From the NCBI RefSeq assembly GCF_046105845.1, contig NZ_CP151004.1: 64,000 nt of DNA. One strand, 5' to 3'. The stretch is from Escherichia coli (lineage in GTDB: Bacteria > Pseudomonadota > Gammaproteobacteria > Enterobacterales > Enterobacteriaceae). Within the stretch, counting starts at the first letter, position 1. Every line of letters begins with the position of its first letter. A program made the translations under genes and the position numbers. The notes under the pieces were generated by a model, which was not told the DNA's origin, ran no database searches, and worked only from the letters and a program-made list of their open reading frames with translations. Positions 48,130-62,892 of this stretch are shown here, one piece after another.

Positions 48130-49630
<1,501 letters not shown>

Positions 49631-49643
49631 TGTTGACTCCGAA

Positions 49644-49663
49644 TGCTGGTTATCTATCCAGTG
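49644..49663 (-). promoter_or_regulatory. LexA box upstream of cho (CACTGGATAGATAACCAGCA on minus strand)
   Basis: CTGG-N8-CCAG palindrome read directly; matches the box I recall being reported for ydjQ/cho. Confidence 0.6.
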
Positions 49664-49709
49664 TAACAGGCGGGGAGCGATTAAAAAAGAGGCGGGTTGA
49701 TGACAAAGG

Positions 49710-49820
49710 TTACACCGTCTGACGTGCTACGCCTGTCAGGCCTATTCGACTCATGCAATATATTGAATTTGCATAGTTTTGTGGGGCGAATAAGGCGTTC
49801 ACGCCGCATCCGGCGTGAAC
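49710..49820. repeat. REP/BIME palindromic units between cho and nadE
   Basis: GGCGTTCACGCCGCATCCGGCG and CGCCTGTCAGGCCTA motifs resembling REP consensus. Confidence 0.6.
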
Positions 49821-49859
49821 AAAGTACTCTTTTTCGCACAAACCAATATGTGCAAATTA

Positions 49860-50687
49860 TTACTTTTTCCAGAAATCATCGAAAACGGTAATTGGCGGAC
49901 GGCGTTTATGTTCGGTTTTCAGATACCAGTTCTCTATTGTTCTGGCGACCTGTTCAGGTAGGTTTTTCCCTTCCAGATAGTCGTCGATATTGTCATAGGT
50001 CACGCCGAGTGCCACTTCATCTGGCAGAGAAGGGCGATCATCTTCCAGATCGGCCGTTGGGGCTTTCTTATAAAGGTGTTCCGGGCAACCTAATGCCGCC
50101 AGTAACTGTTTACCCTGGCGTTTGTTGAGACGATACAGCGGATTAATATCCGTACCGCCGTCACCATATTTAGTGAAGAATCCGGTAATGGCTTCTGCTG
50201 CATGATCGGTGCCCACCACGACACCGCTGGTCATACCCGCAATGCTATATTGTGCTTTCATCCGCTCACGCGCTTTTTCATTGCCACGGACAAAATCGCT
50301 CAGTTCAATGCCTGCTTCCCGCAATGCCTGCTCGCTGGCCAATACCGCGCCCTTGATATTAACGGTTAATACGCGATCCGGTTGAATAAAGGCAATGGCA
50401 TCCTGGCAATCTTGTTCGTCGGCCTGAACACCATAGGGCAGGCGTACGGCAATAAATTGCAGTGATTCGTTGCCGGTCTCCTGGCGCAGCTCATTAATCG
50501 CCATCTGGCACAGCTTACCGGCAAGCGTGGAGTCCTGACCGCCGCTGATCCCTAGCACCAGTGATTTAATGAACGGATAAGTTTGCAGGTAGCTTTTCAG
50601 AAAATCGACACTACGACGAATTTCCTCTTCAGCATTAATTTGCGGTTTTGCGCCCAGCGCCTTTATTATTTGTTGTTGCAATGTCAT
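49860..50687 (-). CDS. nadE: NH3-dependent NAD+ synthetase
   Basis: 275 aa from [23 protein letters not shown]; SGGQDS PP-loop. Confidence 0.96.
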
Positions 50688-62139: not shown

Positions 62140-62730
62140 TTAGTATTCAACCTGATGCTTAATAAGCCGATGAAACTGGATCTGCAAAGTATTGATCATT
62201 TGCGATGACCAACGAACAGCGCTGTTTTCGGGTAATGAATGGGGCATCCATACCGACCAGACAAATAATGCCATGCAGATAAAACGTTCCAGTTGGTTGC
62301 CCTTTTGGGGAACCAGGATAGGCAAGCGGAAACGCCAGCGGCATGGCCAGAGCAGGGGAACACCGGCGGGTGTCAGCATATCGGCAAGTATGTGGCTCAA
62401 ATAACCCAGCACCATTCCTTGTAGCGCATCAGCCGGAATGAACCAGCTTTCAGGAACCTTAAGGTAAAAGGTTGCCAGCAGCGCAAATACCGCCAGCAGA
62501 CTGTGGGTAAAACCACGATGCCCAAAAGCGCGGGCGATCGGTTTTGATATCCACTTTAATCGCTGCCCAAGAAACGACTTTGGGTGATCGATGTCCGGTA
62601 ACAAACACGTCAGGATTGCGGAAGGGACAATATGCCACCAGTCACCCTGTGCCAGCACGGGCGTCAGCTCGGCATTTTTGGCAAATACCGCACAAGCAAT
62701 AGAAAAGAGAAGGTGACCTTCCGCCGTCAT
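62140..62730 (-). CDS. ydjM: YdjM, LexA-regulated inner membrane protein
   Basis: 196 aa from MTAEGHLLFSIA. Confidence 0.88.
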   Translation of the reverse strand: MTAEGHLLFSIACAVFAKNAELTPVLAQGDWWHIVPSAILTCLLPDIDHPKSFLGQRLKWISKPIARAFGHRGFTHSLLAVFALLATFYLKVPESWFIPADALQGMVLGYLSHILADMLTPAGVPLLWPCRWRFRLPILVPQKGNQLERFICMALFVWSVWMPHSLPENSAVRWSSQMINTLQIQFHRLIKHQVEY

Positions 62731-62744
62731 GATAAAACTCACTA

Positions 62745-62764
62745 AACTGTCGATACGTACAGTA
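62745..62764. promoter_or_regulatory. LexA box upstream of ydjM (CTGT-N8-ACAG)
   Basis: AACTGTCGATACGTACAGTA read directly; a second degenerate box may follow at 62759-62782. Confidence 0.75.
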
Positions 62765-62892
62765 TAGGATTTTTATACAGTGCACGGAAGTGGTGACGGT
62801 GTAACTCTTTCTCTTAAATTGACGATTAATCCGCCAGTTGAATGCAAATTCAGATAAAGAACCAGGGGCAGCGTGATAACTGCCCCTGGTTA

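Follow-up and report, generated by a model that had tools for sequence, protein, structure and literature searches.

We identify the 20-bp sequence CACTGGATAGATAACCAGCA, at positions 49663..49644 on the minus strand of a 64,000-nucleotide (64-kb) stretch of Escherichia coli chromosomal DNA, as the LexA operator (SOS box) of the cho promoter. The whole stretch that was analyzed is called the window throughout. The probability that this is an operator of medium strength, at which LexA keeps RNA polymerase from the promoter until the DNA is damaged, is put at about 0.93. The assignment is based on the reading of the sequence, on its heterology index (HI), on its published identity and on its conservation.

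The LexA box of cho is real, functional and already published, and it is an ordinary one. It is how E. coli confines the backup excision nuclease Cho to DNA-damaged cells, and beyond a correct annotation it is of little importance. The addition made here is a modest one: a conserved sequence that looks like an extended -10 element overlaps the operator, which would make position 1 of the box common to the recognition by RNA polymerase and by LexA.

The LexA box and the cho gene

On the plus strand positions 49644..49663 read tgctggttatctatccagtg, the reverse complement of which is CACTGGATAGATAACCAGCA. Counted from the first base of the cho start codon, the box occupies nucleotides 14-33 on the upstream side, leaving a gap of 13 nt (TTCGGAGTCAACA on the minus strand) between the box and the GTG. 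Reading of the sequence bore out what an earlier note on this DNA had given for the identity of the box as a LexA site, for its coordinates (49644-49663), for its sequence and for its distance to the gene. The CTG-N10-CAG core is intact (CTGGATAGATAACCAG, 49661..49646, minus strand) and has the exact 10-bp spacing that is expected of an SOS box. The palindrome is imperfect: six of the ten symmetric pairs match, and the mismatches fall in pairs 1/20, 2/19, 7/14 and 10/11.

The coding sequence of cho (ydjQ) extends over 48743..49630 on the minus strand, comprises 295 aa with a GTG start and is annotated as excinuclease Cho in RefSeq. The ORF scored 576 bits against the NCBIfam equivalog NF007833 ('excinuclease Cho'), for which the cut-off is 367. 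Judged from its sequence, the product is excinuclease Cho, a UvrC-like GIY-YIG 3' incision nuclease.

The GTG start codon (49628..49630, minus strand) was read from the ORF and is the one given by RefSeq; among the 79 orthologous loci described below the start codon is GTG in 76, the rest having TTG, ATG or GTA. The 13 nt that separate the box from the GTG include a Shine-Dalgarno sequence, GGAG (49637..49640, minus strand), 6 nt ahead of the start codon. This GGAG is kept across genera at +24 to +27 relative to the operator, in 68-75 of the 79 loci per column.

The gene order around the site in the RefSeq annotation is spy-ves-cho-nadE-osmE. The 1.2 kb surrounding the site showed 100% identity to several swine ETEC genomes and were found in 5425 of 5426 complete E. 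coli genomes. The genes cho, on the minus strand, and ves, on the plus strand, are convergent and share 41 nt at their 3' ends (48743-48783, as annotated by RefSeq for the identical region). Between nadE and cho, directly past the nadE stop codon, a REP-like perfect hairpin (gttcacgccg-gatg-cggcgtgaac) is located at approximately 49797-49820 on the minus strand.

Binding of LexA and LexA-dependent induction were reportedly shown for ydjQ by Fernandez de Henestrosa et al. in 2000, and Cho is said, following work of Moolenaar et al. in 2002, to make the 3' incision in UvrAB-dependent repair.

In Thomassen et al. 2010 (PMC3009722, Table 4) the 25-mer TACACTGGATAGATAACCAGCATTC is the LexA motif given for the region ahead of cho; the gene was UV-induced, and its upstream region was one of those that fed the motif search of that study. 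In the review by Maslowska et al. (PMC6590174) cho(ydjQ) appears among the entries headed 'Known SOS box', with Fernandez de Henestrosa 2000 and Courcelle 2001 as the sources, and Vaisman et al. (PMC3820734) describe cho as LexA-regulated. For the Salmonella ydjQ box, Mérida-Floriano et al. (PMC8072944) reported an HI of 6.69 and a 3.3-fold induction by nalidixic acid; a GFP fusion of Salmonella ydjQ was too dim to score in the same study.

Strength of the box

Calculation of the HI, which the earlier note had named as a check, was performed with the Berg-von Hippel/Lewis formula, in which ln[(n_consensus+0.5)/(n_observed+0.5)] is summed across all positions of the box. Table 4 of Thomassen et al. 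2010 (PMC3009722) supplied the LexA boxes for the matrix; cho was set aside and the 17 others were used. The cho box obtained a leave-one-out HI of 7.93, and an HI of 5.70 with cho in the matrix, the absolute value depending on the training set. Among the 18 published boxes it ranked 12th, between uvrD (7.82) and ruvA (8.52). The HI values of the 17 other boxes span from 0.58 (umuD, sbmC) to 12.82 (dinG), and cho falls within this functional range.

When both strands of the window were scanned, the cho box was the top 20-mer of the 64 kb. In first-order Markov simulations of the window, sites that reach the score of cho arose by chance at 0.027 per 64 kb. The second and third matches were the tandem ydjM boxes, TACTGTACGTATCGACAGTT (62745-62764, HI 9.94) and CACTGTATAAAAATCCTATA (62763-62782, HI 10.00), the latter being listed for ydjM in PMC4576408. 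All other 20-mers of the window had an HI of at least 12.4. The ydjM boxes serve as an internal positive control for the HI scan, and any search of the window for LexA boxes has, in these two and the cho box, a clean positive control.

The tandem ydjM boxes (62745-62782, minus strand) overlap by 2 nt and closely precede a 200-aa ORF whose ATG is at 62729. This ORF was called ydjM by its position, and the distal box is without the CAG arm. The number of bare CTG-N10-CAG sequences in the 64-kb window (24 observed against 12.3 expected) was considered as a test of significance and was dropped as uninformative.

The box had been described in the earlier note as non-canonical. This description is correct in that G6 and C15 replace the consensus T and A, and it is overstated otherwise, the CTG-N10-CAG core being intact and the arms identical to those of ruvA. 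C at position 15 was found in six of the 17 other known boxes and G at position 6 in two of them. According to Culyba et al. 2018, who varied positions 14 and 15 systematically, A or C at position 15 favours slow LexA dissociation and tight binding, and G or T does not. Positions 6 (1.82) and 15 (0.57) contribute together only 2.4 of the 7.9 HI units of cho, and G10 (3.14) and C1 (1.44) contribute more. G6 and C15 are tolerated variants, useful for future LexA-box scans.

The same note had also called cho a weakly repressed, late SOS gene. In such a reading the CTGG/CCAG arms would make an unusually weak, non-canonical operator, and this weakness would cause weak repression and late induction of cho. 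The rarity of G6 is compatible with it, as are the low induction of Salmonella ydjQ (3.3-fold only, with an undetectable GFP fusion; PMC8072944) and the place of E. coli among its orthologues, its HI of 7.93 being above the orthologue median of 6.91 with 53 of the 79 orthologous boxes stronger. We nevertheless consider it improbable. The rank of the box, beside uvrD and ruvA, argues against unusual weakness; C15 is biochemically as favourable as A, and positions 6 and 15 account for the 2.4 of 7.9 HI units given above.

As for lateness, the claim reverses the standard equilibrium model, in which weaker operators are activated earlier and shut off later; with a higher HI, expression is predicted to come earlier and to be leakier, not to come later. 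In Culyba et al. 2018 the late promoters are those of sulA and umuD and the early set includes uvrD. The boxes of sulA and umuD are stronger than that of cho, with leave-one-out HI values of 6.05 and 0.58, and the HI of cho lies beside that of the early uvrD. With an HI of 7.93, cho does not have the low-HI, slow-dissociation operator of 'late' genes of the sulA/umuDC type. That paper does not include cho among the 14 promoters that were timed and does not name it in the text on 28 native operators, and a search of the literature for cho as a 'late' gene, or for any timing of cho, found nothing relevant. The Salmonella data lend some support to a low induction ratio and a low absolute expression of cho.

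Conservation of the box among the Enterobacteriaceae

Conservation of the LexA operator was analyzed in a scan for the Cho protein with one genome per species, which yielded 80 loci, and the 79 with upstream sequence were used. The genera sampled were Escherichia, Salmonella, Citrobacter, Klebsiella, Raoultella, Enterobacter, Kosakonia, Phytobacter, Lelliottia, Leclercia, Franconibacter, Pluralibacter, Cedecea and Buttiauxella, among others.

Each of the 79 Enterobacteriaceae cho loci had CTG-N10-CAG ahead of its start codon, at a distance of 11-16 nt. When these loci were aligned on the box, positions 2-5 (ACTG) and 16-18 (CAG) were invariant, and the columns of the centre (10-11) and of the flank from -15 to -7 were near random (0.1-0.4 bits). 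Invariant arms together with a free centre are the footprint expected of a LexA operator. The HI of the orthologous boxes ranged from 3.0 to 10.6 around the median given above, with E. coli on the weaker side.

Within the species, the 42-mer which includes the box and the Shine-Dalgarno sequence was found exactly in 4936 of 5426 complete E. coli genomes, and approximately 457 of 5393 differ somewhere within it. In E. coli GN4738 (locus L082), T replaces C at box position 1, the equivalent of 49663. This variant, the only one inspected, improves the -10 hexamer described below (to TATACT) as well as the match to LexA (HI 6.49 against 7.93).

The proximity of the repeat to the Shine-Dalgarno sequence could suggest that it acts as an RNA hairpin in the 5'-UTR, on translation or stability, and the AT-rich centre GATAGATAAC, which in our own reading only is vaguely like a GATAAT repeat, could suggest binding of another protein. 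Both readings have a negligible probability. A 45-nt segment folded with -8.6 kcal/mol (z = -0.52), and 54 of 200 shuffled sequences folded equally well. From species to species, the bases at positions 6 and 15 change independently of each other (T/A 26, G/A 24, G/C 23, T/C 4), and half of these combinations are unable to pair, so that no compensatory pattern is seen. The hairpin was rejected on these two grounds, the fold being no better than that of the shuffles and compensatory changes being absent. In addition, the start site predicted below falls within the repeat, and the full hairpin would therefore not be transcribed. Against another DNA-binding factor, the centre is the least conserved part of the site.

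A chance occurrence of the palindrome, with no regulatory role, is effectively refuted: the core is indeed common (24 per 64 kb) and the palindrome holds in six of ten pairs only, but the site is the best match to the LexA matrix in the window where 0.027 were expected, its arms stay unchanged and in a fixed place throughout the 79 loci with the adjacent intergenic columns near random, and it has been published as an SOS box.

A putative extended -10 element overlaps the operator

The alignment of the 79 loci revealed a conserved block, C-T-G-y-T-A followed by y-A-C-T-G, that is fused to the 5' end of the LexA box. T(-2), A(-1), A2, C3 and T4 are invariant, and TGnTAyACT or a close variant of it, with the TG intact, was found in 74 of the 79 loci. 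From this conservation we infer that TGTTACACT (TG-n-TACACT; 49660..49668, minus strand) works as an extended -10 element, the final four bases of which are positions 1-4 of the operator.

No promoter was found by a sigma-70 two-hexamer scan of 49500-49900, which would be due to the extended -10 having no match to a -35. Likewise, no TTGACA-like -35 is conserved in the 79-locus alignment. Standard spacing alone, of approximately 7 nt past the -10 hexamer, would place the start of transcription in the zone 49651..49655 (minus strand), that is within the operator. The leader would then be approximately 22-25 nt long and would carry the conserved GGAG. No entry for a mapped cho start site was present in the supplements of ROSE, Shigella M90T and Romero 2014, nor in the available portion of the Cappable-seq supplement.

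At the -35 distance of the putative promoter a conserved C-TTTTTT tract is located (49683..49689, minus strand; columns -26 to -20 of the alignment, strongly conserved). In the upstream regions of Phytobacter, Enterobacter and Intestinirhabdus a strong GC hairpin (-17 to -25 kcal/mol) precedes this tract, and the simplest reading of this arrangement is that C-TTTTTT probably belongs to the nadE terminator as its tail. The stem ahead of the tract is largely degraded in E. coli, and read-through from nadE into cho may be possible there.

The overlap of the box with the conserved extended -10 suggests that LexA probably blocks RNA polymerase directly. In the undamaged cell a LexA dimer would occupy both CTG/CAG half-sites and, once bound, would cover both the putative -10 and the site predicted for the start of transcription, thus excluding RNA polymerase. 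Upon DNA damage RecA* would trigger the self-cleavage of LexA, the operator would be emptied and cho would be transcribed. UvrAB-dependent excision repair could then draw on Cho as a second nuclease for the 3' incision. The proposal of a direct block, made from the overlap of box and -10, is new here.

A more detailed model, to which we give somewhat less than even odds, combines three elements: the operator would be fused to an extended -10 that needs no -35, the choice of C or T at position 1 would shift promoter strength and LexA affinity together, and the T-tract would be a reused tail of the nadE terminator. No description of this architecture was found in the literature searched, and curated databases may already hold it. 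In TAyACT, the putative -10 hexamer, the third base coincides with position 1 of the operator, and variation between C and T should therefore alter both properties. If the model is true, the C/T difference at position 1, which is seen between genera and within E. coli in GN4738, would set the basal level of Cho and its induction ratio.

Comparison with known LexA boxes

In K-12 MG1655 the cho box is the same 20-mer (1823482-1823501), located 13 nt before the cho GTG (start 1823515). The 25-mer TACACTGGATAGATAACCAGCATTC is identical in K-12 and in the window, the operator is the same, and the two sequences, which belong to different E. coli lineages, differ by a few substitutions upstream of the box.

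The Salmonella enterica ydjQ box TACTGGATGAATAACCAGTT is the orthologous site, with CTGG...CCAG arms and a gap of 13 nt to the GTG, as in E. coli. It is nearer to the consensus than the E. coli cho box (HI 6.69 as published in PMC8072944 and 5.97 with our matrix). Table 1 of PMC8072944 gives the distance of the ydjQ box to the ATG as 0. In the Salmonella loci (L006, L011) an in-frame ATG is found within the LexA box, approximately 22 nt upstream of the GTG (GGATGAATAACC). This ATG would explain the published distance, and it was presumably the annotated start. The conserved GGAG and GTG argue that the real start in Salmonella is the GTG, as in E. coli.

The ruvAB box CGCTGGATATCTATCCAGCA shares with cho the CTGG-N8-CCAG arms and the ...CAGCA 3' end, and its HI is similar (8.52 against 7.93), whereas its centre is different and it belongs to another gene. 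In Culyba et al. 2018 the ruvA promoter is suspected of using an alternative sigma factor. The uvrD box ATCTGTATATATACCCAGCT is close to cho in HI (7.82) and has the same right arm, CCAG, but its left arm is the canonical CTGT; uvrD is an accessory gene of nucleotide excision repair and, according to Culyba et al. 2018, belongs to the 'early' promoter class. Among these boxes the cho operator is a mid-range one, akin to those of uvrD and ruvA, and is neither unusually weak nor the marker of a late gene.
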